A DNA stretch of 64,000 nucleotides from an uncultured Bdellovibrionales bacterium (GTDB lineage Bacteria; Patescibacteriota; Minisyncoccia; Moranbacterales; UBA1568): the NCBI GenBank assembly GCA_964395165.1, contig CAYMZY010000001.1:1695-65694 (forward strand). Direction: 5' to 3'. Of this stretch, positions 7,453 through 51,813 are shown piece by piece. The notes beneath the pieces are model-generated. The model searched no databases, was not told where the DNA came from, and saw only the letters and a list, made by a program, of their open reading frames with translations. How positions within the stretch are numbered: position 1 is the first letter of the stretch; every line of letters starts with the position of its first letter. A program made the translations under genes and the position numbers.

Positions 7453-8574
7453 ATGCCTTTTTTTGGGAATCCTCGTTTTTTGGGAATCGATTTCGGGACT
7501 GCCGCTTTGAAGGTGGTCGAGCTTGAACTTATCGGTGGAAAACCGGTCCTGGTGAACTATGGAGTGGCTGATTTTTCGCATCTGGAAGAGGAACTTAAGA
7601 ATGCGACATATACCTATGATGAGGCGGTGAGTCTCTATCTCCATGCTCTTCTGGTGAAAATGCAGCCGAAGACCAACAGCGCATATATCGCGATGCCAGC
7701 GTATACGGGGCTGATAACGCTCGTCGAGTTTCCGGAGTTGGACGAGACGCAGATGAGCGAGGCGGTACAATTCGAGGCGCACAAGTATGTGCCGGCCACA
7801 TCGCTTGACGATGTCGCTCTTTCGTGGGAAGTCATCGAGCGACGGAAGGGAAGCGAAGGGGAAATGATCATGGAAGTTCTTCTGGTGGCTGCTCTCAGGA
7901 AGGAAGTCAATCGGTATCAGTCATATATTCGACAGGAGTCCCTGGAAATGAGCCTGCTTGAAATAGAGACATTCGCGATTGTGCGGGCTTTGCTTGAAAA
8001 AAGTTCCGGATCTGGAGCGAAGATCTTGATCGATATCGGGTCTCGCGCGACGAATATCATCTTGACGAATGATGGTTCGGTGAAACTGAGTCGGAACATC
8101 GATACGGGCGGGAAGGATATGACGAGGACTTTGGCGGATACGATTGAGGTGGCTCGATCTCGTGCGGAGGAACTCAAGAAGAGCGGGAAGGATTTTTTGA
8201 ATCAACGGGAGTCGGCTGTCGTATTCCCGACACTGCAGGTGGTAATCACGGAAACGAAGCGAGTCATCGCTTCCCATGAGGAAAAGCATCCTGAATCGAA
8301 AGTGACGGAAATCATCCTCTCGGGCGGGTCGTCCCGATTGGCCGGTATCGTCGAGTATTTTTCGTCGATATTCGAGCTTCCAGTCAGTATCGGGCATCCT
8401 TGGTCGAAGATCCAAGCGACGGAAAAACAACAAGCAATGATTCACGAGACGGATACTTCGTTTGCGGTAGCGATCGGGCTGGCATTGGGAGGGGTGGAAA
8501 GCTCCATCAATGAAAAAAAACAGAATAAAGGTTTTTTTGGAGGGCTGGATGCCATGTTTCAGAAGAAAATATAG
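7453..8574 (+). CDS. pilM: type IV pilus assembly protein PilM (actin-like ATPase)
   Basis: FLGIDFGTAALKVVELE N-terminus, ASKHA fold motifs (LIDIGSRATNII, ILSGGSSRLAGI). Confidence 0.85.
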   Translation: MPFFGNPRFLGIDFGTAALKVVELELIGGKPVLVNYGVADFSHLEEELKNATYTYDEAVSLYLHALLVKMQPKTNSAYIAMPAYTGLITLVEFPELDETQMSEAVQFEAHKYVPATSLDDVALSWEVIERRKGSEGEMIMEVLLVAALRKEVNRYQSYIRQESLEMSLLEIETFAIVRALLEKSSGSGAKILIDIGSRATNIILTNDGSVKLSRNIDTGGKDMTRTLADTIEVARSRAEELKKSGKDFLNQRESAVVFPTLQVVITETKRVIASHEEKHPESKVTEIILSGGSSRLAGIVEYFSSIFELPVSIGHPWSKIQATEKQQAMIHETDTSFAVAIGLALGGVESSINEKKQNKGFFGGLDAMFQKKI

Positions 8575-8616
8575 TATAATATCAATCGGGTCGGTCATAA
8601 AATAAAACAGAAGCGT

Positions 8617-9171
8617 ATGCCAGGAGTGAATCTGTCACAATCTATCGCGGAAAAGTCGGCGTATCAGACGAAGAGCGGGAGCGATAAAGGGCGTCTGGTT
8701 ATGTTTGGTATGTTTTTTTTGACGCTGCTTGTCTGGGGAGGTGTGCGAGCCGGTCTGTTTTCTTACGAGAAGAAGATCATGGCGATTCAGCAGGAGATAG
8801 AGGTGAAGAAATCGGGTTTTGGCGGCGCCGTGATCAGTGATATCGCTGATGTGGACGCCCGTCTCGCTCTGGTTAATCAGGAAAAGGCAACTCAGACTTA
8901 TCCGAAAGTCATTTTGACGGGACTTGAAGCAACGGTCTTACCGGTGAATCGTCTGACGAATTTTGATTATGACTTCGAGAAGAGCCTTATCCATATCGTA
9001 GGTGAGGCTCCCGGGTATAAAGAGGTGGCGCAGCAGCTAATGGTGTTTAAGACCTCGCCGCTTTTTTCGGATGTTGTCGTCTCGAGCCTTTCTCGTACGA
9101 AAGATGAAGAAGATGTTTCATCCGTAGTGGTTTTTGATATTACCCTGGTTTGGAACAAGAAGGATAAATAA
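8617..9171 (+). CDS. pilN: PilN-like pilus assembly protein
   Basis: Short cytoplasmic N-terminus, single TM (LVMFGMFFLTLLVWGGV), then a coiled-coil periplasmic part. Position directly after pilM. Confidence 0.55.
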   Translation: MPGVNLSQSIAEKSAYQTKSGSDKGRLVMFGMFFLTLLVWGGVRAGLFSYEKKIMAIQQEIEVKKSGFGGAVISDIADVDARLALVNQEKATQTYPKVILTGLEATVLPVNRLTNFDYDFEKSLIHIVGEAPGYKEVAQQLMVFKTSPLFSDVVVSSLSRTKDEEDVSSVVVFDITLVWNKKDK

Positions 9172-9187
9172 TTTTTATTGTATACGT

Positions 9188-10042
9188 ATGAGTCTCAAAC
9201 TTCTCGCCATACCCCTTCTCGTCATCTCCATCCTGGTGATCGCCATCAGTTACGTAAAGCCGGACCTCGTTCTCTTATCTGAAAAAAGACGTCAACTGGA
9301 ACACTTCCGGCTCCAAGCAGCCTCGCTCGATAGGATTTCATCCAATATCAAGTCGATGCAAACGCAGATAGCGACTAGTAACTCCGACCCTGGATCCCAG
9401 GTGACGGATGCCGATTTCTTGCGTCAGGTCTATTTCCCGGCTGTTTCGGATATCGAGAAGGGAATCGATCAGTTGAATTTTCTGGCCGATCAGAGCGGGG
9501 TTGCCGTGAGTGATATACAGGTGCAGGATGTGGAAAAGAAATCAGCTGTCTCGGCTCTAGGAGGCCTGGAGGATAGCGCAAGTGGTAGTGCCGAGCTTCT
9601 GATTGCAAATGAATCCGACGTTGCGGTAGAGGCGGTTCCGGTCGCCATACATCGGACATATACCCCGGATACTTTCATAGTTACCATCGAAACCGTCGGT
9701 TCCTACGAGGCAACAAAGGATTTCTACGCTCGCCTGGTTCAGGCAAAGCGTTTTTTCTTTCCAAAGGTAATGAAACTTGCCAATAAGGACCAGGGGAGCT
9801 CCGGTTTCCCTGGAACGGAAAAGAAAGAGGATGTCTCTTCGGATACCCTGGTTTCAAGTGTGGAAGTCGAGTTTTCGGTTCTTCCAACGGTATCGGTCGC
9901 CTCCGCTGTCGGGGATGATGCTTTCGAGAAAGCGAAACTTGATTTCGAGACGTTGGCGATGATTCGTCAGGATCAGCAGGGAGTGACGCCGGCTTTGCCT
10001 GCGGCTAATACTCTCGGGAAGACGAACTTGTTCGTTAAGTAG
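9188..10042 (+). CDS. PilO-like / hypothetical bitopic pilus assembly protein
   Basis: Single TM (LLAIPLLVISILVIAISYV) plus coiled-coil, between pilN and pilB. Start chosen at the in-frame ATG MSLKLL. Confidence 0.4.
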   Translation: MSLKLLAIPLLVISILVIAISYVKPDLVLLSEKRRQLEHFRLQAASLDRISSNIKSMQTQIATSNSDPGSQVTDADFLRQVYFPAVSDIEKGIDQLNFLADQSGVAVSDIQVQDVEKKSAVSALGGLEDSASGSAELLIANESDVAVEAVPVAIHRTYTPDTFIVTIETVGSYEATKDFYARLVQAKRFFFPKVMKLANKDQGSSGFPGTEKKEDVSSDTLVSSVEVEFSVLPTVSVASAVGDDAFEKAKLDFETLAMIRQDQQGVTPALPAANTLGKTNLFVK

Positions 10043-10077
10043 ATCGGACAGTCCGACTTATAAGAAGAGGGCATCCT

Positions 10078-11724
10078 ATGGAAGAGACCGAAACGCAGAT
10101 GACTGTGCCGAAAGTTTCAGACACGTCTTCCGGTACTGTGCCGGTCCTTTCGGAGTTCCCGAAACAGCTGGAAAAACGGATACTGGAAATCATCCCCGAA
10201 GCGACGGCTCGCAAGCATCGCCTGTTTTGTTTTGAAAAGACTGATACGTTGCTCCGTATCGCCATGGTTGATCCGTCGGATTTCGATGCTATGAATATGC
10301 TCCGTTTCCTTGCGGAAAAGGAGTCATTGAGTATCGAAATTTATCGGACGACGGAAACTGTCTTTGGTGAAGTGATGAGGAATTACAGCGGAACCGATAA
10401 GGCGTTGCAGAATGCGATCCTCTCCCTCAAGAAAGGAGCCGAATCAGGAATCGATCTTGAGGCGGAAAAAAAGAAGGTCGTTCAGGGGGAGATATTCCAG
10501 GACGCTCCTATCGCGAAGCTGGTGGAGGTTATTGTCAAGCATGCTCTTGATGGAAGAGCGAGTGATATCCACATCGAACCGATAGAGGGCAATTACCGTG
10601 TCCGGTTCCGAATCGATGGGGTACTCAAATCACAATTGGTCTTTCCGCTTGAGGTGGGACGGGCGGTGGTGTCACGTATCAAGATACTGTCGAATCTCAA
10701 AATCGATGAGAAGCGTAAGCCACAGGACGGGCGTATTCACTTCGAAAGCGGTGGACGGGCGGTCGATCTCCGCGTCTCCTCACTGCCGGTTATGGAGGGA
10801 GAGAAGATCGTGATGCGCGTCCTCGACCGGGCCAACAATGTGAGCGATTTCGATGTTCTGGGACTTCTGGGAAGAAACCGGACCGTTCTTCTGAATAAGA
10901 TACGTGAACCGTTCGGCATCGTTTTGATCACGGGTCCGACCGGTTCCGGGAAATCGACCACCCTGTATGCTTTCTTGCAGATCCTGAATCAGGAAGAGCG
11001 TAATATCGTGACGCTCGAGGATCCCGTGGAGTACTTTATCGATGGTGTGAATCAGAGTCAGATCCGACCGGAAATCGGATACACATTCTCCGCCGGTCTC
11101 CGTTCGATTCTTCGCCAGGATCCGAATATCATCATGGTCGGAGAAATCCGCGATAATGAGACGGCCGAACTGGCGATCCATGCCGCATTGACCGGACACC
11201 TCGTCCTCTCCACGCTCCATACTAATGACGCGATCGGATCGGTTCCGAGATTGGTCGATATGGGTGTCGAATCCTTCCTTTTGGCGTCCTCGTTGCAGTC
11301 GGTCGCCGCACAGCGTTTGGTGCGGAAAATCTGTGAAAAATGCAAGACGGAGATGAAGATCACCGATCTTCAGAGGAATCGCCTGGCACAGATGTACCAG
11401 GAGATACCGCTTGCAGAGAAGAAGGCGTACAACTTGAAAGACAATCAGGAGATCAAGGTGTTCAAGGGTGAGGGTTGTGATGACTGTGGAAGGACCGGGC
11501 ACAAGGGTCGTATCGGAATATATGAAGTTTTCGAGATCACCGACCCGGTGAAGAGCATTATCACCGACCACAATGCGAACGAGCACGAGCTTCGGAAGGA
11601 GTCCTTGGGCCAAGGCATGATCAGTATGAAAGAAGACGGTATTCTCAAAGTGCTGCTCGGTCTGACGACGCTCGCCGAGGTTGAACGGGCGACCGAGGGG
11701 AAATTATTGATCGATGAAGAGTAG
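10078..11724 (+). CDS. pilB: type IV pilus assembly ATPase PilB (GspE family)
   Basis: Walker A GPTGSGKSTTLYA, Asp box, His box. C-terminal tetracysteine CEKC...CDDCGRTG. Confidence 0.9.
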   Translation: MEETETQMTVPKVSDTSSGTVPVLSEFPKQLEKRILEIIPEATARKHRLFCFEKTDTLLRIAMVDPSDFDAMNMLRFLAEKESLSIEIYRTTETVFGEVMRNYSGTDKALQNAILSLKKGAESGIDLEAEKKKVVQGEIFQDAPIAKLVEVIVKHALDGRASDIHIEPIEGNYRVRFRIDGVLKSQLVFPLEVGRAVVSRIKILSNLKIDEKRKPQDGRIHFESGGRAVDLRVSSLPVMEGEKIVMRVLDRANNVSDFDVLGLLGRNRTVLLNKIREPFGIVLITGPTGSGKSTTLYAFLQILNQEERNIVTLEDPVEYFIDGVNQSQIRPEIGYTFSAGLRSILRQDPNIIMVGEIRDNETAELAIHAALTGHLVLSTLHTNDAIGSVPRLVDMGVESFLLASSLQSVAAQRLVRKICEKCKTEMKITDLQRNRLAQMYQEIPLAEKKAYNLKDNQEIKVFKGEGCDDCGRTGHKGRIGIYEVFEITDPVKSIITDHNANEHELRKESLGQGMISMKEDGILKVLLGLTTLAEVERATEGKLLIDEE

Positions 11725-11728
11725 CGCT

Positions 11729-11757
11729 TTGGTCTTATCGGTTTTTTCGGATATACT
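11729..11757 (+). promoter_or_regulatory. putative sigma70-type promoter for pilT (TTGGTC-N17-TATACT)
   Basis: The hexamers are visible. The -10 matches the TATACTG motif that recurs in this window. Confidence 0.3.
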
Positions 11758-11799
11758 GTCAGGAGGAGTTCGGGTTGAATCAATACAAAAACGTATCCT

Positions 11800-12894
11800 A
11801 TGGAAACAAACCTACATGCGGATCAGCGGATCAAGAACCTCTTGTTTCTTGTTGGCCAGCAGAAGGCTTCGGATCTGCATCTGGTAGTCGGGCGTCACCC
11901 GACCCTGCGTATTGACGGCAAGCTCGTACCGATCGTCCAGGAAAAAGTCCTGACTCCCGATGATACCAAAGCGTTGTCGCAGGCTATTCTTACCGAAGAG
12001 AAACAGGAAGAGTTGCTGGCGAAAGGGCATACGGATTTCTCGTATGCGTTTGAGGAGCGGGCCCGTTTCCGAGTGAACGTTTTCTTTCAGAAGGGATATA
12101 TCAGTGTCACGATGCGGTTCGTCATGGACCGGTTGCGAAGTCTTGAAGAATTGAATGTCCCGACGGCTCTGTATAATTTTACCAAGTATTCGCAGGGGCT
12201 TGTTCTGGTGACCGGACCGGTAGGGCACGGAAAGTCGACTACTCTGGCGGCCATAATCGATTTCATCAATCACAACTATGACAAACATATCCTGACTATC
12301 GAGGATCCGATCGAATTCGTGTACAGTCAGGATCGGTGCATCGTCAATCAGCGTGAAATCGGCCGGGATGCGAAGAGTTTTCCCGATGCGCTCCGGGCGG
12401 TCTTTCGGGAAGATGCGAATGTCGTGCTTTTGGGTGAGTTGCGCGATCTGGAAACCATCGGTACCGCCATGACGGCCGCCGAGACCGGGCACCTCATTTT
12501 TGCGACACTGCATACCAATGACAGCTCGCAGACGATCGATCGTATCATTGATGTCTTTCCTGCTTATCAGCAGAATCAAATCCGGTCTCAGCTGGCGAGT
12601 GTCCTGATCGGAGTCATCTCTCAACGCCTGCTTCCTCAGGTGGGCGGAGGACGGGTGCCGGCGGTTGAGATCATGTTCAAGAACCATGCGGTGGAGAATT
12701 TGATTCGCGAGAATAAGATACATCAGATCGATGGTGTGATCGAGACGAGTCTGAAGGAAGGTATGATATCGCTTGATCGTTCTCTCGCGGAACTTGTTCG
12801 CCAGGGACTCATCTCGGTGGAAGACGCTTTCTCTTATGCGAAGAATCAGGATTATCTCCAGATGATCATCGCAAAAATGGCTGAAAAAGCCTGA
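11800..12894 (+). CDS. pilT: twitching motility ATPase PilT
   Basis: Walker A GPVGHGKSTTLAA, ILLGELRD, AIRN-like C-terminus. 364 aa. Confidence 0.9.
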   Translation: METNLHADQRIKNLLFLVGQQKASDLHLVVGRHPTLRIDGKLVPIVQEKVLTPDDTKALSQAILTEEKQEELLAKGHTDFSYAFEERARFRVNVFFQKGYISVTMRFVMDRLRSLEELNVPTALYNFTKYSQGLVLVTGPVGHGKSTTLAAIIDFINHNYDKHILTIEDPIEFVYSQDRCIVNQREIGRDAKSFPDALRAVFREDANVVLLGELRDLETIGTAMTAAETGHLIFATLHTNDSSQTIDRIIDVFPAYQQNQIRSQLASVLIGVISQRLLPQVGGGRVPAVEIMFKNHAVENLIRENKIHQIDGVIETSLKEGMISLDRSLAELVRQGLISVEDAFSYAKNQDYLQMIIAKMAEKA

Positions 12895-12923
12895 TTTTTC
12901 GTAAAACATTATTTGTTATCCGT

Positions 12924-14132
12924 ATGAAATTCGTATTCAAGGCGAAAACCGAAGCGGGTCAAGAGCGGTCAGGTATCGTCGAGGCTCTGAGTCGAGAGGC
13001 TGCTATCCTGGTACTTCAAAACAACGGTCTCACGCCATTTTCCGTACAGGAGGAGGCGCACGATGTCGCATTGATTCGGGATATTTCGAAACTGTGGGAG
13101 GGGGTGTCCCAGAAGGAGCTGATGGTGATGTTTCGACAGCTGGCGACATTGATCAGTGCCCGAGTTCCGATGGTTTCGGCCTTGGATACCCTGGCGGATC
13201 AGACACCGAATCGATATTTTCGTATTATCCTAAAGGAGATAGAAGATGATGTGGAAGACGGTTCATCGTTTTCAGAAAGCTTGGAAAAGCATCCGACCGT
13301 ATTCGAACCGCTGGTCATCAATATGCTCCGGGCCGGAGAGGTTTCAGGAACCCTTCAGCGGGCGATCGAGGTGGTCGCGGAAAATATCGAGAAGAATTAC
13401 CAGCTGTCAGCCAAGATCAAGGGGGCGCTGTTCTATCCAGGATTCGTCTTTTCGGCGGCACTTATCATCGGGTTTCTCGTGGTGACGTTCATCCTGCCGA
13501 AACTGACTGGTCTGATTCGTGATCTCGGAGTTCCGATTCCGTGGTATACGGAGGTGCTCATGTGGATCGGGGATTTCATGAATGCGTACTGGTGGGCAGT
13601 ACTGCTCGTGTTTTTTGCGGCCGGTCTCTCATTTTTCTACTATATCAACACTGCGGCGGGACAGGCCGATTGGAATCGGGTGGTCCTGAAGTTGCCTATA
13701 TTTGGAGACCTCATGAAATACGTCTATATCACCCGTTTTTCGGAAAATATGAGCTCGCTTCTGAATGGGGGGATTCCGATCGTCAAGGCGCTCATCATCG
13801 TGAGTGACGTGACAGGAAATCTCGTTTTTCGGGAGGTCATCCTGCATGCCGCGGAAGAAGTGAAGACGGGTGGGGCGATGAGTGGGGTGTTTCTCCGTTC
13901 CCCGATCATACCGCCTATCGTGTCGCAGATGATTAAGATCGGCGAGGAGTCGGGATCGGTCGCGAAGGTGCTCGACGGTGTGGCGAGTTTTTACCGGGCG
14001 GAAGTGGAAAACATCACGCGTAACATGACCTCTTTGATAGAGCCGATACTGATCGTATTCCTTGGTATCGGGGTCGGAATTATGGTGGTGGGTATTCTTA
14101 TGCCGATCTATGATATCGCCGGGAAACTTTAA
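12924..14132 (+). CDS. pilC: type IV pilus inner-membrane platform protein PilC (GspF family)
   Basis: 402 aa, two T2SF repeats, three TM segments. Confidence 0.9.
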   Translation: MKFVFKAKTEAGQERSGIVEALSREAAILVLQNNGLTPFSVQEEAHDVALIRDISKLWEGVSQKELMVMFRQLATLISARVPMVSALDTLADQTPNRYFRIILKEIEDDVEDGSSFSESLEKHPTVFEPLVINMLRAGEVSGTLQRAIEVVAENIEKNYQLSAKIKGALFYPGFVFSAALIIGFLVVTFILPKLTGLIRDLGVPIPWYTEVLMWIGDFMNAYWWAVLLVFFAAGLSFFYYINTAAGQADWNRVVLKLPIFGDLMKYVYITRFSENMSSLLNGGIPIVKALIIVSDVTGNLVFREVILHAAEEVKTGGAMSGVFLRSPIIPPIVSQMIKIGEESGSVAKVLDGVASFYRAEVENITRNMTSLIEPILIVFLGIGVGIMVVGILMPIYDIAGKL

Positions 14133-14249: not shown

Positions 14250-14609
14250 ATGAAAAACAATCTGAAAGGTTTCACGCTCATCGAACTCCTGATCGTCATC
14301 GCGATTATCGGTATTCTCGCTTCGATCGTGCTGGTGAGTTTGAGCGGTGCTCGGACAAAGGCGCAAAAGGCGGCGTTCAAAGCTGAAGTGTCCGGAGCGG
14401 TTGGAGGTCTTGTGCTCGAGTGTGATGATGCTGCTCCGACACCACCGGGAGACACGACGGTAACGGATTGGGACAATACGGTAACGGAGGATTGTGGCCC
14501 AGCTGGCGATGGGACCTTCTCGATTAGTGCGGTTCCAGTGGCGACTATCGCTGGTTGCACCGGGGCAAACGCGACAGAAACAGGAGCAGATTTTGCGAGT
14601 TGTCCTTAG
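14250..14609 (+). CDS. pilA: type IV pilin (class III signal peptide)
   Basis: [31 protein letters not shown] prepilin motif (cleavage after G, Glu+5). 4 Cys in the C-terminal half. Confidence 0.8.
14265..14345 (+). repeat. 81-nt exact direct repeat, copy 1 (pilin N-terminal alpha-helix coding region)
   Basis: Identical to 14683-14763 (aaaggtttcacgctcatcgaactcctgatcgtcatcgcgattatcggtattctcgcttcgatcgtgctggtgagtttgagc). Confidence 0.85.
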
Positions 14610-14670
14610 GCTTTCGGGCTCGGGAGATTGACTGGCTTCAAAGGTGTTAAAATTTTTTAAAGAAAGATTT

Positions 14671-15027
14671 ATGTATCAGAAGAAAGGTTTCACGCTCATC
14701 GAACTCCTGATCGTCATCGCGATTATCGGTATTCTCGCTTCGATCGTGCTGGTGAGTTTGAGCAATGCTCGGACGAAGGCGCAGGTGGCGTCATTCAAGG
14801 CGGAGACATCTGGAGCGAATGCTGGGCTTTTGCTCCAGTGTGACACCGCTGCTCCTACGCCACCAACCGATACGACGACAACTAACTGGGCCAACGCCAT
14901 CACGAGTAGCTGCGGAGCTGCCGGAAGCGGAACATTCAGAATTACCGCGGTTCCGATTAACACAGCCTTGAACTGCACCGCTACGGTCACCAACACGGGA
15001 ACAACCTATGCGGGGGCGGGCTGCTAG
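14671..15027 (+). CDS. pilA: type IV pilin paralog (class III signal peptide)
   Basis: [22 protein letters not shown]. The C-terminal half diverges from copy 1 but keeps 4 Cys and a Thr/Pro-rich stretch. Confidence 0.8.
14683..14763 (+). repeat. 81-nt exact direct repeat, copy 2
   Basis: See 14265-14345. Confidence 0.85.
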
Positions 15028-15052
15028 TCTTGCAAATTTTCTTGAACGGATG

Positions 15053-15086
15053 CAGAAGAGCGGGGAGGTGTCCCCGCTCTTCTGCT
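15053..15086 (+). terminator. perfect 15-bp inverted repeat (gcagaagagcgggga/tccccgctcttctgc) after pilin 2; no U-tract
   Basis: The inverted repeat is seen directly. It is followed by TATACTGG (promoter-like) rather than a T-run. Confidence 0.35.
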
Positions 15087-15128
15087 ATACTGGGAGAGTG
15101 ACTGATGTACTAAAGTCGTTGATCATAT

Positions 15129-16778
15129 ATGAGATTGTTTAGCTGGCCGGATCTTTTGAAGAAAATGAGTCGTTTCGTCAGTGACCAGACTTTACCCTTT
15201 TGGGGAAAGCTGGTTATCGCATACATGTTTTTTTCCCTCCTGTTTTCGGCATATTTTCTCTTGCCATCCTTTACCTCTCTTGATGACCAATTTTTCAATA
15301 TCAAGTTCGCTGAGCTTATCCGGGAACGGGGTATGGGTGCGTTTTCGCATTTTGACTGGTTCAGTGCTGTCGGATCGTATGCCTGGCATGCGAATATGTT
15401 GTTCTATATCTTCCTTATTCCATTTACCTTCGTCGAGCCGCTCGAACTCGGAATCAAACTCTATGCCGTAGCGTCCCTTTCCTTTACTTTTTGTGTGGTA
15501 TACGCTTTCTTTTCCGTCCTCCGGATGCGGTCCGCATTCATCTCAACGCTTGTGATTTTGGCAATTTTTTTCGTTCCGTTGGCCATATGGCATTTCTTGA
15601 TGGCGAGAGCTTTCGTTGTCCTGCCGGCGTCCTTGCTGCTCGAGCTCATTTTTTTGCTTCGGAAACGTTACGTATCGGCTGCGGTACTTGCATTCCTGTA
15701 TTTCTTCTGGCATATCGGAACTTTCTTCTTTCCGCTGGTCGTGGCAGTGGTCTATGCCGTCGCGCTGATTTTTGAAGGGAAGCCATGGAATCGATGGATA
15801 ATACTGGCCCCTCTCGTCGGGACATCGGCTGCAATGGTATTAGGGGGATTTCTTCTACCCGGATTCGCCTCCGGATTCTTTGAAAGCTTTGCAACGATCT
15901 TGAGAACCGTTTCGGAGACGGGATTTTCTGGACAGGCTGTCGTGCAGGAGGGTGGAGAGGTATACCCACTCAATGTCTTTGATTTATACGGATTGGCATC
16001 CGTCTTGATGGGCTTATTCATCTTTTTTCTTGTTAGGGATACGAAGGGATATCTGGCTCATTCGAAGAACAAGGGAGAATCCGTTTTTCAGTACGATGCC
16101 GCTTGGGGAACCTTGTTCATTCTCAGCATCATCTTTCTTCTGGGGACACTCATTACGAAGCGCATGCTGGACTTCTTCGTCGTATTTGCTCCAGTGTTCC
16201 TTCTGTATCGGCTACGATATATCCTTGATCTTTGGAGAAGGGAGCAGGCTGTGAATACCGCGATCGGCGTGGTGATTTTTTTCGGTCTTCTGACGAATTT
16301 GCTTCTGGTGGGAGACCAGGTTTCGCAGACCAGACGATATACTTCGATTCGGGGAGCGGCTGAGTGGCTTACCCGAAACTCTCAGCCAGGGGAGATTGTG
16401 TTCAATCCGACCATAAATTACTTCCCGACGTTCTTCTTCTTCAATCAGTACCATAATCGCCTCATCATCGGAATCGAACCCCGACTTTTGTATGAAGCTG
16501 ATCCGGAAAAGTATTGGCTGTGGTATCATGTTTCCAACGAGGGGAAGGTGTGCGATCGGCAGACATGCGACTCGGATATCCTGTCCGGAAAAGACACGCA
16601 GGAGAAGGGTCTGGCTGTCGCACACATGATGAAAACGGAGTTTTCGGCCCAATTCGTCATCGTTTCCGGGGAATTCGACTCCTTGCTTGAAATCATGCGC
16701 GGTTCGACGGCTTTTCAAAGGGTATATACGGACCCGATCGATAGGTACTACGAGGTATACTCCATACGCCCGGAATAA
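15129..16778 (+). CDS. polytopic membrane protein, putative GT-C-type glycosyltransferase (ArnT/PMT/GT39-83-like architecture)
   Basis: 549 aa, about 11-13 TM then a roughly 150-aa soluble C-terminal domain. Acidic SLDDQ motif in the first predicted outside loop. The function is inferred from architecture and context only. Confidence 0.45.
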   Translation: MRLFSWPDLLKKMSRFVSDQTLPFWGKLVIAYMFFSLLFSAYFLLPSFTSLDDQFFNIKFAELIRERGMGAFSHFDWFSAVGSYAWHANMLFYIFLIPFTFVEPLELGIKLYAVASLSFTFCVVYAFFSVLRMRSAFISTLVILAIFFVPLAIWHFLMARAFVVLPASLLLELIFLLRKRYVSAAVLAFLYFFWHIGTFFFPLVVAVVYAVALIFEGKPWNRWIILAPLVGTSAAMVLGGFLLPGFASGFFESFATILRTVSETGFSGQAVVQEGGEVYPLNVFDLYGLASVLMGLFIFFLVRDTKGYLAHSKNKGESVFQYDAAWGTLFILSIIFLLGTLITKRMLDFFVVFAPVFLLYRLRYILDLWRREQAVNTAIGVVIFFGLLTNLLLVGDQVSQTRRYTSIRGAAEWLTRNSQPGEIVFNPTINYFPTFFFFNQYHNRLIIGIEPRLLYEADPEKYWLWYHVSNEGKVCDRQTCDSDILSGKDTQEKGLAVAHMMKTEFSAQFVIVSGEFDSLLEIMRGSTAFQRVYTDPIDRYYEVYSIRPE

Positions 16779-16794
16779 TCATTAGGAATGCTCT

Positions 16795-17847
16795 TTGAGT
16801 ATGCTTCAGAAACAGAAGGTCCGAGTAGGCATCATCGGAGGTGGATGGGTGACGGAACATCGGCATCTTCCAGTGCTCGCGAGGCATGCTTCGGTCGAGA
16901 TTACCTCTCTTGTTGGGCGCGATCGGAAGCGGGTAGAGTCGCTTCAGAAGAAGTTTTCGATCCAGGATTCGTTCGTCGGGGCTGCTCAGGATTTTCCACA
17001 AGGAATGGATGCGTGTGAGGCTGTCGTTATCGGGGCCGATCCTTCCGCGCATGCTTCTTTGATCAGGTTCGCGCTTGAACAGGGTAAGCATGTCCTGGTA
17101 GAGAAACCGTTCACACTTTCTGTTCATGAGTCGGAAGAGCTCGTCGACCTGGCGAGAGCCCGGGGTCTGAAATTGGCAGTCGTGCATAATTTCCAGTTCT
17201 CTTCCTCTGCACGGGAACTGGAGCGGGATATTTTGCAAGGGAATATCGGTACGATACGCAGTGTGGAGGCCGTACAGCTGAGTAATCCGAAAAGACGGCT
17301 CCCGTCCTGGTATGAGTCATTGCCTTGGGGGCTCTTTTTCGACGAATCTCCGCATCTCTTGTATCTCTTGGAAAGATTCGGCGGACCCTTGGCATTCCAA
17401 TCCGCTGCCGTTCACCGCGAAGAAGGAAGAGAGACGCCGCAACTGGTGGATGCGTTCTTTCTTGGGAAGGGGGGCATGCCGATAACCTTGCACATGAATT
17501 TCAATGCGAGCGTGTCCGAATGGTTCTTGATCGTTCATGGGGAGAAACGGGTCGGAGTGTTGGATATCTTCCGGGATATTTATTTTTCCCTTCCGAATGA
17601 TGGGCGGCATGCTCCGCAGCAGATCCTCCGTACGAGTTCCGGGGCGTTTTTCGGTCATCTGAAAGGCGTCTTTCGGAGCGGTATACAGGTCTTGCGAGGG
17701 ACGTATTTCTGTGGGAATGAATCGGTAATGGATATCTTTTTCAGGTCCATTCTGGAGAATTCTTCGCTCGGAAGTATCAGTGCTGAGAAAGGAGTTTCCG
17801 TGAACAGGCTCCAATCAGAAATCATCAACAGAGCCTCTCTTTACTAA
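16795..17847 (+). CDS. Gfo/Idh/MocA family NAD(P)-dependent oxidoreductase (sugar dehydrogenase-like)
   Basis: N-terminal Rossmann VGIIGGGWVTEHRHLPVL. EKP motif (LVEKPF). Confidence 0.8.
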   Translation: MSMLQKQKVRVGIIGGGWVTEHRHLPVLARHASVEITSLVGRDRKRVESLQKKFSIQDSFVGAAQDFPQGMDACEAVVIGADPSAHASLIRFALEQGKHVLVEKPFTLSVHESEELVDLARARGLKLAVVHNFQFSSSARELERDILQGNIGTIRSVEAVQLSNPKRRLPSWYESLPWGLFFDESPHLLYLLERFGGPLAFQSAAVHREEGRETPQLVDAFFLGKGGMPITLHMNFNASVSEWFLIVHGEKRVGVLDIFRDIYFSLPNDGRHAPQQILRTSSGAFFGHLKGVFRSGIQVLRGTYFCGNESVMDIFFRSILENSSLGSISAEKGVSVNRLQSEIINRASLY

Positions 17848-17851
17848 TGTC

Positions 17852-19030
17852 GTGCGGCGAGAGCGATGGAAGTCAATTTTTATGGAAATGCGAAACATAT
17901 TGGTGGTTTCAACTTTTTTCGCTCCTCACGTCGGAGGAGTGGAGGTCTATACGGAGCGACTCTTTTCCCGGCTGGCGAGCAGGTATCGTGAGGCACGGAT
18001 CACTCTTTTGGTCCTTAATACTGATGATGCGCCCGAGTACGAGAGAGTTTCCGGAATCGATGTCTACCGGATGCCTTGCTTTCGGTTTCCTTCGGTGAAC
18101 CCTTTTTTCTCGCCTTTCGAGCTCGTGAAGATGATTCGGAAAATCGATATCGATTCATTCGATATTGTCATCACCCAGTGTCGCTATTACTTTTTGACGA
18201 ATGCCCTGGGAGCTATCGCTCGGTATCGGAAGATACCGCTCATCCATATCGAGCATAACGCGGGCTTCATGAAGCACGGCAATCCGTTCATTCAGGTGGC
18301 GGCATGGTCGTATGATAGGCTATTGGGCCCGCTCGTCCTTCGGCGTTCGAGAGTCATCATCTGTGTTTCCGAAGGAGTTCGAAAGTTCCTTCTCAAAGCG
18401 TTTCATATGGATGCGCATCGATTGCTGGTCAGGGAGAGCGGAATCGATACGGATGGATGGAATCAGGTAGAGCATGTTCCTCATGAGGATTATTTTCCGG
18501 TACTCGCGTATGTCGGCCGTCTTATCGAGTCGAAAGGTATCCTGCTCCTTCTGGAATCCGTCAGGAATTTGAAAGCGAAATATCCCCGGATACACCTGTT
18601 TGTCGCGGGCAGTGGTCAGGATGAGGATCGGGTGAAATGTGCGATCTCCGAATATGGTCTTGACAGACAGGTTTCCTTGCTTGGCAATATCAATCATGAT
18701 GCCATGAGGAATCTGTATCGGTCGGTAGATATTCTCATCAATCCTTCCTATTATCCCGAAGGTTTGCAGATAACCCTCCTTGAAGCGGCTTGCTCGGGTT
18801 TGGCGATCGTGACGACCGATGTCAGTGGAGCGAATGAGCTTTTTCGGGACGGAGATTCTGCCCTGATAGTGGAGAAGAACAACATGAGTGCTCTCGAACG
18901 GGGTATCGTGAGACTTCTGGAAGATTCTGAGCTGAGAAGAAGGCTTGGAGAACGTGCGAGACAGGAAGTTTCGGAAGTGTTTTCATGGGAGAAGAAAGCG
19001 GATGCGTTTTATGAAGCGATTTGGCGGTAA
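17852..19030 (+). CDS. glycosyltransferase family 4 (GT-B)
   Basis: EX7E-type motif region EGLQITLLEAACSGLAIVTTDVSGANE. The start may instead be the ATG at 17882. Confidence 0.8.
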   Translation: MRRERWKSIFMEMRNILVVSTFFAPHVGGVEVYTERLFSRLASRYREARITLLVLNTDDAPEYERVSGIDVYRMPCFRFPSVNPFFSPFELVKMIRKIDIDSFDIVITQCRYYFLTNALGAIARYRKIPLIHIEHNAGFMKHGNPFIQVAAWSYDRLLGPLVLRRSRVIICVSEGVRKFLLKAFHMDAHRLLVRESGIDTDGWNQVEHVPHEDYFPVLAYVGRLIESKGILLLLESVRNLKAKYPRIHLFVAGSGQDEDRVKCAISEYGLDRQVSLLGNINHDAMRNLYRSVDILINPSYYPEGLQITLLEAACSGLAIVTTDVSGANELFRDGDSALIVEKNNMSALERGIVRLLEDSELRRRLGERARQEVSEVFSWEKKADAFYEAIWR

Positions 19031-19415
19031 ATTTCTGTCTCGGTATTTCATCCGGTTCCTCCTGGTCGGCGGACTGGCTTTGTCATGCAGTCTCGCGGGT
19101 TTTTATCTTCTGGTCGATAAGGCTGGTATTCCGTATCTGTCGGCTACCGCTATCCTTTTCTTCGTGGTGAACTTTTTTTCTTTCCTTCTGAACAAGTATT
19201 TCACTTTTCGGACGGAAAACGTTCACTTTCCCCGTGAGATGGGACGGTATTATGCGATAATGGTATCGAGTTTCATTTTGAATCTCGCGGGCATGTTTCT
19301 TCTCGTGGATGTGCTTGGCCTGTGGTATATTGCAGCCAGCGTGATAACGGCGTTTCTGATGGTATGGTATAATTTTTTCTGGAGTTATTTCTGGGGATTC
19401 GGAAGGGATATATAG
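19011..19415 (+). CDS. GtrA family membrane protein (polyprenol-phosphate sugar flippase-associated)
   Basis: About 135 aa, 4 TM. FIRFLLVGGLALSCSLAGFYLLV...KYFTFR is typical of GtrA. Overlaps the GT4 stop by 20 nt. Confidence 0.65.
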   Translation: MKRFGGKFLSRYFIRFLLVGGLALSCSLAGFYLLVDKAGIPYLSATAILFFVVNFFSFLLNKYFTFRTENVHFPREMGRYYAIMVSSFILNLAGMFLLVDVLGLWYIAASVITAFLMVWYNFFWSYFWGFGRDI

Positions 19416-19421
19416 ACTGTT

Positions 19422-20171
19422 ATGGCGTATTACGATAACTTCGTTCGACATGCTCATCCCCGCTGGGCTAAACGTCTTTTGGTCCGCTTCAATAAGCAAG
19501 TATTGGGATATATCTTGAGGGGATTCCCGGGGAAAAAGAAGTTGTCCGTTTTGGAAATTGGTCCCGGCAAGGGTTACTTTTACGAGGCGGCTCAGGGTGT
19601 TCGCGGAGAACGGATGGAATATTTTTGTTGTGATCAGAATGCGGTTGCCTTGGAGCAGTTTCCTTCTGCGCGTACGTTTCAGGCGAGTGTTCCTCCTTTG
19701 CCGGAAACGGGAAGGAATTTCGACATCATTTATGCCGCTTATGTCATCGAGCACCTTGCGAACGGGAAACAGGTGTATGACCTGGTTCAGTCATGTCGAG
19801 AAAATCTGAATCCTGGAGGGGTACTTGTCTTGCTCGCTCCTGACAGCCGGAGTCAGAAATTCGAGTTCTGGAATATGGACTATACTCATTCCTATCCGAC
19901 GACCATGCGGAATGTCGCCATGATACTTCGTGAGAACGGTTTTTCCGAAATATCGATTTTGCCGGTCAACGGACTGCTGACGGTTCCCGGCTTTGAGAGG
20001 TGGCCGGTCTATCAGGCGATCCGGGCACTGTTTTTCCTGTATGATTATCGGGTTTTCCAGGTTCTCTTCGGGTGGGTTTTCCGTAGGCAGATATACGACC
20101 TCGACAATCCTTTTTATCAGTTGTTCTGTTTCGTGAAACAGCGGAATCTGATGTTCATCGCTCGAAAATAA
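19422..20171 (+). CDS. class I SAM-dependent methyltransferase
   Basis: Motif I VLEIGPGKGYF, acidic motif II. 249 aa. Confidence 0.7.
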   Translation: MAYYDNFVRHAHPRWAKRLLVRFNKQVLGYILRGFPGKKKLSVLEIGPGKGYFYEAAQGVRGERMEYFCCDQNAVALEQFPSARTFQASVPPLPETGRNFDIIYAAYVIEHLANGKQVYDLVQSCRENLNPGGVLVLLAPDSRSQKFEFWNMDYTHSYPTTMRNVAMILRENGFSEISILPVNGLLTVPGFERWPVYQAIRALFFLYDYRVFQVLFGWVFRRQIYDLDNPFYQLFCFVKQRNLMFIARK

Positions 20172-20177
20172 GACCGT

Positions 20178-21311
20178 ATGAAGGAGCTCACCATCATCAT
20201 TCCCTGTCTTAACGAAGCAGAGACAATCGGTCAGGTCGTTCGTGATGCGGTGCGCGGCCTGCGGAAAGCGTCTTGCGATGGGGAGGTTCTCGTTTCCGAT
20301 AATGGCTCGACGGACGCCTCGGTCGAATTGGCTCGCTCCCAAGGAGCTCGGGTCATACACTGTCCGAAGCGGGGATATGGCAGCGCTCTCCGGTATGGTA
20401 TCGAATCCGCCGAGAGCACCTATGTCCTCTTCGGTGATGCCGACGGATCGTATGATCTCGGCAGTATATCCGGTTTTGTCCGCGAATTGCGGAATGGCAA
20501 TGACTTGGTGATTGGAACGAGACTGCGGGGACGCATCGAGCCGGGAGCGATGCCCTTTCTTCATCGGTATCTCGGGACACCGGTTCTGACTCGACTTCTG
20601 AACTTCTTGTTCCGTATGGACATATCGGATTGCAATTCCGGCATGCGGGGATTGAATAAGGACGCCTTCGGGAGAATGGGATTAACCGCTTCCGGGATGG
20701 AATTCGCATCGGAAATGCTGATCAAAGCGGGTATTTTCAGATTGAAAGTGAAAGAAATCCCGATCACATTGTATCGGGATAAGCGTGACCGGGAGCCTCA
20801 TCTTCATACCTGGAGCGATGGGTGGCGTCACCTGCGGCTCCTCCTGATCTATGCCCCGAACCATCTCTTCGTCTATCCCGGATTCCTTCTGTTCCTGTTG
20901 GGAACGGGATTACTTTTCCTTCAAGCGAGAGGTCCGGTCACATTCGGGTCTCTGCATATGGATCTCCACTTCATGATACTCGGGATCAGCCTGAGCGTGC
21001 TCGGGATGTCCGTCTTCCAGATGGGAATGATTATCAAGCTTTTTTCCTATCAGAACGACTATTATGAGAATGATTGGATGGTTCGGAAGCTGAAACTCTT
21101 TCCTTTCAACAAGAAGGTGTTCATGGGTCTCGGGGTGACCAGCGTCGGGATCGGGATATTCTTGATAATCCTGTTCGATTGGATACGTCTTTCCTTGGCC
21201 AACCCCGAGATGATACGTTTTTCCCTTTTTGGCCTCTACTTCCTCTTTACTGGTATTTCTCTGATACTCTTCTTTTTTCTTGAGGCAGTGATGAACAAGA
21301 ATGAGGAGTAG
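20178..21311 (+). CDS. glycosyltransferase family 2, polyprenol-phosphate sugar synthase type (GtrB/DPM1/ArnC-like) with C-terminal TM helices
   Basis: LTIIIPCLNEAETIG, DADGSYD (DXD) motif, then 4 C-terminal TM segments. Confidence 0.75.
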   Translation: MKELTIIIPCLNEAETIGQVVRDAVRGLRKASCDGEVLVSDNGSTDASVELARSQGARVIHCPKRGYGSALRYGIESAESTYVLFGDADGSYDLGSISGFVRELRNGNDLVIGTRLRGRIEPGAMPFLHRYLGTPVLTRLLNFLFRMDISDCNSGMRGLNKDAFGRMGLTASGMEFASEMLIKAGIFRLKVKEIPITLYRDKRDREPHLHTWSDGWRHLRLLLIYAPNHLFVYPGFLLFLLGTGLLFLQARGPVTFGSLHMDLHFMILGISLSVLGMSVFQMGMIIKLFSYQNDYYENDWMVRKLKLFPFNKKVFMGLGVTSVGIGIFLIILFDWIRLSLANPEMIRFSLFGLYFLFTGISLILFFFLEAVMNKNEE

Positions 21312-46240: not shown

Positions 46241-46357
46241 GGACGACAGCTTGCTTTTTTGGCTGATTGGTGCGAGAGTGGGCGCAGGAGGGAAACTGCT
46301 ACGGCGGTTTCTCTTTTTCTGTTTTTTGACAGTCTAATAAGAAAGGCAGGAATCACA

Positions 46358-47818: not shown

Positions 47819-47834
47819 ATTTTTCTTTTTCCAT

Positions 47835-47861
47835 CCCCCGGTAATTTCGGGGGCTTTTTTT
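47835..47861 (+). terminator. intrinsic terminator (cccccg/cggggg + T7)
   Basis: Seen directly. Confidence 0.6.
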
Positions 47862-47934
47862 AGCTGAAAAATGGAGTACGGAACGATTCTCCAAAACCAT
47901 GTATACTGGAAGAGCTTTTCCTTTCTGAATCCAT

Positions 47935-50423: not shown

Positions 50424-50461
50424 GGTCATCCAGTGTGATACTGATGCGAAAGACCGTTTTT

Positions 50462-50490
50462 TTGTCGGATGGGGTGAGGTGCTGTATACT
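50462..50490 (+). promoter_or_regulatory. putative promoter TTGTCG-N17-TATACT for the pseudopilin operon
   Basis: Hexamers seen. TGTATACT motif. Confidence 0.35.
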
Positions 50491-50547
50491 ATACTTATTG
50501 GAAGGGTCTGATTTCTTTAATTTTTTCAAATTCGCAGGAAATCCGAT

Positions 50548-51072: not shown

Positions 51073-51088
51073 ATACATCAGGATTCAT

Positions 51089-51802: not shown

Positions 51803-51813
51803 CGAGTACTTCT

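Follow-up and report, generated by a model that had tools for sequence, protein, structure and literature searches.

A candidate glycosylation cassette for the major pilins in a patescibacterial type IV pilus operon

TfpW, a membrane glycosyltransferase of the GT-C superfamily, which acts on the group IV pilins of Pseudomonas aeruginosa, has an essential DDx motif in its first periplasmic loop and uses a polyprenyl-phosphate sugar donor made by separate genes, among them one for a GtrA-like protein (bioRxiv 10.1101/2020.04.19.049825), and glycosylation of Pseudomonas pilins protects against pilus-specific phages (bioRxiv 10.1101/150227). In archaea, pilin-like subunits are glycosylated at N-x-S/T by the GT-C enzyme AglB (PMC4390842, PMC5131992), and the three-component logic of a GT2 synthase, a flippase and an outward-acting GT-C enzyme is established (PMC11127046). 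Type IV pili also play a central part in how Patescibacteria live as episymbionts, and the sole experimental study of their pili predicted pilin glycosylation computationally and urged its confirmation (PMC11623550).

The window analysed here is a stretch of 64,000 nucleotides from an ultra-small, Moranbacteria-like bacterium, probably with a single-membrane envelope. We consider it quite likely, from sequence comparison and structure modelling, that positions 14250-21311 hold an accessory cassette of a type IV pilus operon whose products glycosylate the major pilins. Eight ORFs, two for pilins and six for the downstream proteins, lie there on the forward strand (Table 1). The preliminary description had proposed a pilin-directed O-glycosylation island around a GT-C-like protein; its core holds up well, on fold and on linkage, but the O-linkage is not supported in the form given there.

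Table 1. Features of the pilus locus and the adjoining cassette, in window positions
Feature	Position	Strand	Basis or description
PilM	7453-8574	+	best reciprocal match to genes with PilM_2/T2SSE/T2SSF Pfam matches in syntenic loci
PilN/PilO-like (first)	8617-9171	+	reciprocal best match, syntenic loci
PilN/PilO-like (second)	9134-10042	+	reciprocal best match, syntenic loci
PilB	10078-11724	+	reciprocal best match, syntenic loci (PilM_2, T2SSE, T2SSF Pfam genes)
PilT	11800-12894	+	reciprocal best match, syntenic loci
PilC	12924-14132	+	reciprocal best match, syntenic loci
Major pilin 1, type a, 119 aa	14250-14609	+	PF07963 E 9e-10; TIGR02532
Major pilin 2, type b, 118 aa	14671-15027	+	PF07963 E 7e-10; TIGR02532
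Perfect hairpin	15052-15085	+	15-bp stem, 4-nt loop, 25 nt past pilin 2 stop codon
GT-C-fold membrane glycosyltransferase, 549 aa; proposed pilin glycosyltransferase	15129-16778	+	fold and acidic motif
Gfo/Idh/MocA NAD(P)-dependent sugar oxidoreductase	16795-17847	+	PF01408 E 4e-22
GT4, GT-B fold, cytoplasmic glycosyltransferase	17852-19030	+	PF00534 E 5.5e-40; PF13439 E 4e-21
GtrA-family four-TM protein, candidate lipid-linked-sugar flippase	19002-19415	+	PF04138 E 2.2e-17
Class I SAM-dependent methyltransferase, soluble	19422-20171	+	PF13489 E 5.8e-13
GT2, polyprenyl-phosphate sugar synthase type (DPM1/GtrB/AglJ-like)	20178-21311	+	PF00535 E 2.5e-24
Prepilin peptidase PilD	49608-50423	+	PF06750 and PF01478
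Minor pilin (first)	50548-51072	+	PF07963
Minor pilin (second)	51089-51802	+	PF07963
Minor pilin (third)	51736-52401	+	PF07963

The pilus machinery block (7453-14132) lies directly upstream of the pilins, in the same gene order as in L001, L027-L029, L050 and L051, and the genes for PilD and the minor pilins (49608-52401; phmmer) make up the distal end of this pilus system. In relatives, pilD and the minor pilins come straight after the major pilins or the GT-C gene; in the window the operon is interrupted after the GT2 gene, where genes for NusB and RNase III follow, and pilD is 28 kb away. Spacing from the GT-C gene to the GT2 gene ranges from overlap to 22 nt and is operon-like, and since scans for promoter and terminator consensus sequences returned counts equal to those in shuffled sequence, gene spacing is the basis on which co-transcription is proposed. 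The 101-nt intergenic segment around the hairpin folds with a dG of -40.7 kcal/mol (z -4.9; 0 of 200 shuffles as stable). The stem has no T-run after it and the consensus terminator scan made no call there; placed between the cassette and a pilin gene with high expression, the hairpin probably serves for attenuation or for stabilising the mRNA.

Both pilins have the features expected of type IV pilins, namely a class III signal peptide that has G-1, F+1 and E+5 and is cleaved between KG and FTLIE, a hydrophobic alpha-1 helix and a cognate PilD. Pilin 1, whose gene is preceded by a strong Shine-Dalgarno sequence, has the leader MKNNLKG and four cysteines; pilin 2, for which 52 close homologs were found, has the leader MYQKKG and a Thr/Pro-rich loop between Cys57 and Cys81. 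The AF2 model of pilin 2 (pLDDT 85.6) contains a helix at 9-59 and strands at 71-73, 78-80, 88-95, 103-107 and 110-114, and because a Foldseek search with it gave no significant match, the pilin assignment uses sequence motifs. As the preliminary description had noted, each pilin bears a single N-x-T sequon, which reads N-A-T in pilin 1 and N101-C102-T103, at a loop-to-strand boundary, in pilin 2, and the Thr/Pro-rich stretch that it quoted is present in both.

The 549-aa protein encoded next to the pilins belongs to a family of 3,315 representatives at 50% identity (E up to 1e-3) for which no Pfam or NCBIfam model exists, and the protein itself matches neither collection. Its 11-13 hydrophobic or helical segments are preceded by a K/R-rich N-terminus, consistent with a cytoplasmic location, and followed by some 150 soluble residues, which the AF2 model (pLDDT 86) renders as a mixed alpha/beta C-domain. 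Segments, motif and fold agree with the GT-C-like architecture first read from the letters. The protein has the multi-spanning fold of the superfamily together with an acidic motif in the first extracytoplasmic loop: D52-D53 (SLDDQFFNI) lie six residues past TM1, D53 being invariant and D52 at least 90% conserved. Further conserved positions are R345 and E277, both invariant, the latter in an EGxExYP motif of a low-confidence flexible outer loop, and an aromatic motif in the C-domain, [YF]WxW[WYFH] (YWLWY, 462-466), present in 24 of 26 family members. Structure searches returned STT3 and AglB among the best matches. A transporter or flippase, the outcome that would have spoken against the preliminary description, is rejected because no transporter occurs among the significant fold matches. 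Sequence-level relationships are fainter: the family profile found only non-significant PDB matches (cytochrome oxidase subunit 2, E 0.24; AftA, E 4.5), the C-terminal domain alone matched nothing in PDB, and Pfam scans of individual members gave weak GT87 matches in two (best E 4.6e-5) and DUF6798 matches in four (E about 0.1). The STT3 Pfam model was unmatched by the window protein and 26 family members at E up to 1, the profile search of PDB, taken to E 10, picked up no OST chain, and none of the 26 members carries WWDxG; since both the motif and the Pfam match are absent, membership of the STT3 family is ruled out.

All five other proteins were matched in Pfam to the families proposed for them, with some refinements. 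Ortholog lengths are consistent with shorter products, and true starts are therefore suggested to lie later for the Gfo/Idh/MocA gene (about 16801), the GT4 gene (about 17882) and the GtrA gene (about 19002, a 29-nt overlap with the GT4 end; its ORF is open from 18945 and its orthologs have 134-137 aa). NCBIfam matches to the oxidoreductase reach its N-terminal part only and stay below cut-off. The GT2 is nearest to TIGR04182 AglJ (E 3e-38; 131.8 bits, against a cut-off of 325) and lies also near the dolichyl-phosphate hexose transferase and PpgS models, missing every NCBIfam equivalog cut-off. It ends in four hydrophobic segments in place of the TM pair first described, and its orthologs carry PF26629 GT2_TM_C.

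Members of the GT-C family, at 28-87% identity, sit between the major pilin gene or genes and pilD in 19 of 21 distinct loci, so that the proposed check for linkage to pilins in relatives came out in favour of the cassette reading, and in ten related operons pilD follows the pilins directly, with no GT-C gene between them. The gene is thus present in some pilus operons and absent from others. The six genes do not travel as one conserved block: the GT-C gene is constant, the GT2 and methyltransferase genes are frequent (at least 12 loci for the latter), GtrA occurs in the window, L020 and L021, and the Gfo/Idh/MocA and GT4 genes are lineage-specific.

From these elements we infer a sequence of chemical steps. 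The GT2, anchored by its four C-terminal helices, would draw on a nucleotide sugar to charge polyprenyl phosphate with a hexose at the cytoplasmic face, and the methyltransferase would methylate that sugar. In the window lineage, the GT4 and the Gfo/Idh/MocA protein may then add a second sugar and/or oxidise or epimerise the glycan; our guess is that the GT4 probably adds the further sugar, and the oxidoreductase is proposed to oxidise or epimerise either the sugar itself or its lipid-linked form. The GtrA-family protein would flip the lipid-linked glycan to the outer face, where the GT-C protein, by way of D52-D53, would transfer it to the globular domain of pilins whose N-terminal helix still keeps them in the membrane, ahead of assembly by PilB/PilC. 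Use of a polyprenyl-phosphate sugar by the GT-C protein is putative and gains indirect support from GtrA and from the GT2 gene next to it in 16 of the 21 loci. On weak hints, the sugar of the cassette may be mannose. In relatives such hints come from an MptA/B-family gene (L007) and from GH130 genes (L022).

Which pilin residue would receive the glycan is a separate matter. The Thr/Ser/Pro-rich stretches had been offered as a sign of O-glycosylation, but close relatives of the pilins from operons with no GT-C gene have the same loop and conserve the stretch P-x-D-T-T-T-T-N-W just as well, and it therefore lends O-glycosylation no support; Ser+Thr content is likewise the same with and without the enzyme (26.5% and 26.2%). 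It is the sequon that co-varies with the GT-C gene. Pilins linked to a GT-C gene contain 53 N-x-S/T sequons against 39.4 expected (P 0.0075), whereas those without one contain 16 against 19.9 and show no enrichment. Close type-b pilins average 2.9 sequons with the GT-C gene and 0.75 without (Mann-Whitney P 0.0003), and N-C-T is found at Cys3 in 10 of 11 linked and 0 of 12 unlinked pilins. On the pilin tree, which is weakly resolved, the sequon association reflects only some two to three transitions that are independent of one another. Blind prediction of GT-C presence from N-C-T was right in two of two cases, and one counterexample, L044, has the GT-C gene and a pilin whose visible portion lacks a sequon. 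The comparative signal favours Asn (N101-C-T of pilin 2, N-A-T of pilin 1), with a weight roughly equal to that which earlier knowledge gives to Ser/Thr. Should the pilins indeed be glycosylated, we would give N-linkage and O-linkage the same credence, each somewhat short of an even chance, and another linkage a minor share. More tentative, and in our judgement rather doubtful, is the wider proposition of a GT-C family, with the 549-aa enzyme as its founder and no sequence relationship to STT3/PglB/AglB, whose members attach N-glycans to type IV pilins of bacteria at N-x-S/T, with recurrent sites at N-C-T on the third cysteine and N-I/V-T after the first, from a methylated hexose or short glycan linked to polyprenyl monophosphate.

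It may be asked whether the pilins are the acceptors at all. The GT-C family as a whole is not restricted to pilins, since L022 and L024 lie outside pilus operons beside GH130 genes, the distant relative L008 sits in a general glycan cluster with several GT2 and PMT_2 genes, and L009 adjoins an acyltransferase gene; its fold relatives ArnT, AftA and the ALG enzymes modify lipids and glycans. The enzyme might accordingly act on an envelope glycan, a lipid or other surface proteins, its position in the pilus operon reflecting co-regulation or a permissive insertion site. We regard this as fairly improbable: the exact slot from pilins to pilD recurs across GT-Cs as little as 28% identical, and the co-variation of pilin sequons with the enzyme would be left unexplained. 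Very improbable, in turn, is a non-catalytic role for the protein as a pilin chaperone or assembly factor with a GT-C fold, comparable to PIG-U/GAB1 of the GPI transamidase or to non-enzymatic Pseudomonas accessory proteins. Pilin accessory proteins of the latter kind are known (PMC11841053), but the acidic pair at the canonical catalytic position, the invariance of D53, E277 and R345, and the repeated pairing with a GT2 of the polyprenyl-phosphate sugar synthase type all argue for an enzyme.

One could also suppose that only the GT-C gene belongs to the pilus and that the other five genes are an envelope-glycan operon of their own, which in this lineage simply happens to lie next to it. The Gfo/Idh/MocA gene, and likewise its pair with the GT4 gene, accompanies GT-C genes in the window lineage and in L013 only, L001 and L016 carry the GT-C gene with no sugar genes nearby (the donor pathway is therefore not always linked to it), and in the window the operon breaks off after the GT2 gene. 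Yet the GT2 gene keeps company with the GT-C gene in varied arrangements and orientations, including divergent GT2-methyltransferase fusions (L017, L019 and L022 have fused genes), the whole five-gene block accompanies a GT-C only 38% identical in L013, and the close gene spacing in the window speaks against two units; we find a separate operon improbable, and keep to a cassette that serves the pilins.

As a putative pilin glycosylation cassette, the locus offers the missing candidate enzyme for Patescibacteria, in clonable form and with specific candidate sites, and it opens a first way into the function of a large GT-C family for which there is no model. By analogy with Pseudomonas pilin accessory genes, its likely role is variation or masking of the pilus surface against phages, or modulation of adhesion. 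The presence/absence polymorphism of the GT-C gene among close relatives resembles that of the phage-defence accessory genes in Pseudomonas, and therefore suggests that pressure for surface variation acts on ultra-small bacteria too. If N-linkage were true, membrane-associated N-glycosylation in bacteria would no longer be confined to PglB homologs, and a second, independent bacterial route would parallel, in Patescibacteria, the archaeal glycosylation of pilins by AglB.

Set beside the known systems, the cassette resembles each in part. Like actinobacterial O-mannosylation (Ppm1 and the GT39 enzyme Pmt), it pairs a GT2 lipid-sugar synthase with a GT-C protein glycosyltransferase, and the Thr/Pro/Ala-rich loops that serve as Pmt acceptors resemble the Cys1-Cys2 loop of these pilins; it differs in that no PMT, PMT_2 or MIR match was found in Pfam, that its enzyme is specific to the pilus operon and not general, and that the Thr/Pro-rich loop does not co-vary with it. 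With Gtr-type systems, and with ArnC, ArnE/F and ArnT, it shares the co-encoded GtrB-like GT2 synthase, GtrA candidate flippase and outward GT-C enzyme, but classical Gtr systems modify O-antigen or lipid A, whereas the context here favours a protein acceptor, and here a methyltransferase, a GT4 and an oxidoreductase are added and the GT-C is of another, unmodelled family. The archaeal AglB pathway, whose N-glycosylated targets are type IV pilins, archaellins and S-layer proteins, comes close in combining type IV pilin-like subunits, a GT-C enzyme and a methyltransferase, AglP, which methylates the lipid-linked glycan; AglJ belongs to it as well and puts the first hexose on dolichyl phosphate, the GT2 of the window being far below that equivalog cut-off. 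AglB has the STT3 hallmarks that the window protein lacks and a much larger C-domain, and its pathway is N-linked, which is suggested here by sequon co-variation. TfpW, from a host of another phylum, has 646 aa and a C-terminal TPR domain, for which the 549-aa protein with its alpha/beta C-domain gave no Pfam match (the two are compared by description), and it adds D-Araf oligomers to Ser/Thr, whereas the partner genes here hint at a methylated hexose and the signal falls on Asn sequons. What the two have in common is a multi-TM GT-C protein with an acidic motif in loop 1, encoded directly downstream of the major pilin by an accessory gene that varies among strains.

The region at 14250-21311 is a confirmed feature and is supported as a glycosylation cassette that is linked to pilin genes and built on a GT-C family for which neither Pfam nor NCBIfam has a model. 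It lies within a type IV pilus gene set (Table), in which the two prepilins share the cleavage site KG|FTLIE and are followed, as far as 21311, by six co-oriented genes. This gene content had been read correctly in the preliminary description: Pfam and NCBIfam place five of these six gene products in the families named there, although the GT2, to which a C-terminal TM pair had been ascribed, displays four C-terminal hydrophobic segments. The NCBIfam models nearest to this GT2 are AglJ, dolichyl-phosphate hexose transferase and PpgS, all scoring under their equivalog cut-offs. Spacing of the genes from GT-C to GT2 ranges from a 29-nt overlap up to 22 nt, and ortholog lengths suggest that the true starts of GtrA (about 19002), GT4 (about 17882) and Gfo (about 16801) are later than those called.

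Table. Pilus and proposed glycosylation genes of the window, with GT2-methyltransferase fusions from relatives' loci (L handles)
Feature	Location	Strand	Basis
PilM	7453-8574	+	type IV pilus gene set
Two PilN/O-like genes	between PilM and PilB	+	type IV pilus gene set
PilB	10078-11724	+	type IV pilus gene set
PilT	11800-12894	+	type IV pilus gene set
PilC	12924-14132	+	type IV pilus gene set
Prepilin gene 1	14250-14609	+	PF07963, E about 1e-9; TIGR02532
Prepilin gene 2 (type b)	14671-15027	+	PF07963, E about 1e-9; TIGR02532
GT-C, 549 aa	15129-16778	+	
Gfo/Idh/MocA oxidoreductase	cassette	+	PF01408, E 4e-22
GT4	cassette	+	PF00534, E 5.5e-40
GtrA	cassette	+	PF04138, E 2.2e-17
Class I SAM methyltransferase	cassette	+	PF13489, E 5.8e-13
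GT2	cassette	+	PF00535, E 2.5e-24
GT2-methyltransferase fusion	L017:6320-7906	-	Glycos_transf_2 + Methyltransf_23, ~510 aa, divergent from GT-C
GT2-methyltransferase fusion	L019:6345-7886	-	Glycos_transf_2 + Methyltransf_23, ~510 aa, divergent from GT-C
GT2-methyltransferase fusion	L022:6331-7866	-	Glycos_transf_2 + Methyltransf_23, ~510 aa, divergent from GT-C

Unlike in its relatives, where PilD comes straight after the pilins or the GT-C, the pilus operon of the window is split: the major pilins are followed only after 28 kb, past housekeeping genes that include NusB, RNase III and SMC, by PilD and three minor pilins (49608-52401). The stretch directly upstream of pilD, at 46259-49491, encodes a PIN-PhoH fusion of 519 aa together with a Pif1-family helicase of 518 aa, and a second PilB-like ATPase of 583 aa is found at 59134-60885. 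Across 1-64000 the + strand holds nearly all long ORFs and the cumulative GC skew climbs monotonically; no tRNA genes occur within the 64 kb. Between pilin 2 and the GT-C, 25 nt past the pilin stop codon, a perfect 15-bp stem closed by a GGUG loop (15052-15085) belongs to an intergenic fold far better than that of shuffled sequence (z -4.9) and has no T-run behind it. This hairpin may serve as an attenuator or mRNA stabiliser, and may set how strongly the pilins are expressed relative to the cassette.

The 549-aa protein itself matches nothing in Pfam or NCBIfam. Its AlphaFold2 model, built from the family alignment (pLDDT 86, pTM 0.86), retrieved from the PDB through Foldseek a top 33 in which every entry is a GT-C enzyme or the GT-C-like subunit of GPI transamidase, led by STT3A (E 2.3e-9, TM 0.65) together with AglB, PglB, ALG12, ArnT and AftA. 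There were no transporters among the significant hits, so the transporter fold that had been named as an alternative for this protein falls away. Six residues past the first TM helix lies the motif SLDDQFFNI(R/K), in which, across an alignment of 26 members, D53 never varies and conservation of D52 is at least 90%, along with further invariant residues at K110, E277 (in EGxExYP), R345, W413 and W465. As judged from the modelled fold and this DD motif, the protein is the GT-C glycosyltransferase that had been proposed, from a family without a Pfam or NCBIfam model. Membership of the STT3 family was considered and rejected, given zero PF02516 hits and the lack of WWDxG in all 26 family members. 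A word-indexed search recovered 33 relatives and no more, all of them lacking precomputed Pfam domains; an exhaustive profile search reached 3,315 representatives (50% identity) at E up to 1e-3 and 1,367 at E up to 1e-30, and ten sampled members of this wider family gave no Pfam match. A near-identical protein in the same 90%-identity cluster, from a Candidatus Moranbacteria MAG (Patescibacteria group), is labeled "hypothetical protein" at NCBI. Several homologs (P0102, P0124, P0138, P0162, P0170 and P0195) carry N-terminal extensions of 220-470 aa before the GT-C module, as does the 799-aa GT-C ORF at L020:7281-9680; P0162 and P0195 are without a Pfam match.

Linkage to pilins was examined, as the preliminary description had advised, in neighborhoods drawn from homolog-encoding contigs, from one scan of GTDB species representatives and from loci reached from the pilin side, all annotated with window-derived queries and the prepilin motif. 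In 19 of 21 distinct loci the GT-C (28-87% identical to the window protein) belongs to the pilus operon, coming after the major pilin gene(s) and, where the contig extends so far, ahead of pilD, which together with the fold upholds the core reading of a pilin-directed GT-C glycosylation island. Ten operons with close pilin relatives (examples of GT-C-less loci are L027-L031) have the order PilC, pilins, PilD, minor pilins, LigA and no GT-C; the GT-C is thus a variable accessory cassette at a fixed operon position. The two exceptions outside pilus operons, L022 and L024, both have two tandem ~640-aa proteins adjoining the GT-C (L022:2415-6272(-) and L024:1776-5605(-)); a domain scan of one of these, L022:2415-4334, identified a GH130 (beta-1,4-mannooligosaccharide phosphorylase) domain. 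In L022 the GT-C also adjoins the divergent GT2-methyltransferase fusion. More distant relatives, at 21-23% identity, are sited in general glycan clusters.

Some of these loci have peculiarities of their own. In one locus closely related to the window's, an IS-type DDE transposase gene (L051:6835-7467) lies between PilC and the pilins, and on a JGI contig (L003:4407-8534) PilB and PilC are each split into several short ORFs, through machinery decay or perhaps sequencing frameshifts, next to intact pilins and an intact glycosylation cassette. Several MAGs with a patescibacterial-type pilus operon (L010-L013, L017, L022) bear the record labels "uncultured Bdellovibrionales" or "Candidatus Fimivivens", which are probably automatic mislabels.

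The partner genes are more changeable. The earlier notion of a six-gene block traveling with pilins holds for the GT-C; the complete Gfo-GT4-GtrA-methyltransferase-GT2 block is confined to the window lineage and L013. Among the 21 loci, 16 have a GT2 adjoining the GT-C and at least 12 a class I methyltransferase; GtrA adjoins it in the window lineage, L013, L020 and L021, and in L001 and L016 the GT-C stands alone without sugar genes. Because GT2 and methyltransferase domains are fused in three loci (Table), the arrangement argues that the two activities would work on one intermediate; the GT2 part of the fusion aligns to residues 2-220 of the window GT2 (E 9e-14). ORFs of comparable size are seen in L018 and L024. 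An extra MptA/B-family GT-C in L007 and the GH130-family genes of L022 are weak hints that the sugar may be mannose.

Where bacterial pilin glycosylation has been characterized, only O-linkage is known, and Thr/Ser/Pro-rich stretches had been taken as its sign here. That argument is not sustained by the comparative data: pilins share the conserved P-x-D-T-T-T-T-N-W loop whether or not a GT-C adjoins them, and in de-duplicated major pilins, 23 GT-C-linked and 21 GT-C-less, Ser+Thr content is 26.5% versus 26.2%. What differs is asparagine (7.6% versus 4.4%) and its N-x-S/T sequons, which, in statistics that ignore kinship, number 53 against a shuffle expectation of 39.4 (P 0.0075) in GT-C-linked pilins and 16 against 19.9 in the others, with at least one sequon in 22/23 versus 11/21 (Fisher P 0.0013). 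For the closely related type-b pilins the mean number of sequons per pilin is 2.9 in GT-C-linked (n=11) and 0.75 in GT-C-less ones (n=12; Mann-Whitney P 0.0003, kinship again ignored). An N-C-T at the third Cys is present in 10/11 GT-C-linked and 0/12 GT-C-less type-b pilins, where the equivalent is T/V-C-T, and an N-I/V-T after the first Cys in 6/11, the 12 GT-C-less sequences having no recurrent sequon column. In the pilin 2 model, N101-C102-T103 falls at the boundary between loop and fourth strand. For two N-C-T pilins whose context was not yet known (P0036 and P0058, both of the window's own lineage), a GT-C neighbor was predicted and, in both cases, found. In a weakly resolved pilin tree GT-C-linked pilins make up two or more groups that alternate with GT-C-less pilins, so the sequon signal rests on about 2-3 independent transitions. 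L044 is a counterexample: it has a GT-C, but its pilin, as far as visible, shows "TCT" and lacks a sequon. Weighing the O-linked precedent against the sequon signal, we regard N- and O-linkage as about equally likely; the comparative data do not support the O-linkage claim, and N-linkage is a live alternative, and the more novel one.

We infer every chemical step of the following mechanism. The GT2 would load a hexose onto polyprenyl phosphate, and the lipid-linked hexose would be methylated by the methyltransferase and, in the window lineage, elaborated by GT4 and the oxidoreductase. GtrA would flip it across the membrane, and the GT-C would transfer it via D52/D53, probably also using E277 in a flexible outer loop, to membrane-anchored pilins before their assembly. 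GT2, flippase and GT-C constitute an established three-component route of glycosylation outside the membrane (PMC11127046).

Literature searches turned up no pilin glycosyltransferase described from Patescibacteria, and a Saccharibacteria pilus study offered only predicted O-glycosylation sites and requested confirmation (PMC11623550). What is new is the unmodelled GT-C family and the phylum, from which no demonstrated pilin glycosylation is known; pilin-linked GT-C cassettes are a known kind of system, and this one lends itself to direct testing, both by reconstitution and in metaproteomes that already exist. With PMT/Ppm1 and Gtr/Arn the window cassette has the three-component logic in common, although family and acceptor differ. 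The archaeal AglB pathway, in which type IV pilin-like proteins are glycosylated on sequons (PMC4390842, PMC5131992), resembles it in its AglJ-like GT2 and in pilin-like acceptors that may be modified on sequons here too, but the defining STT3 features are missing from the window GT-C. The closest functional analogue is TfpW, a GT-C that carries a DDx motif in its loop 1, is encoded directly downstream of pilA and draws on a polyprenyl-phosphate sugar donor (bioRxiv 10.1101/2020.04.19.049825); it differs in size, in its C-terminal TPR domain and in its sugar. As a variable cassette at a fixed operon position, the GT-C is organized on the principle also seen in the Pseudomonas aeruginosa pilin accessory genes.
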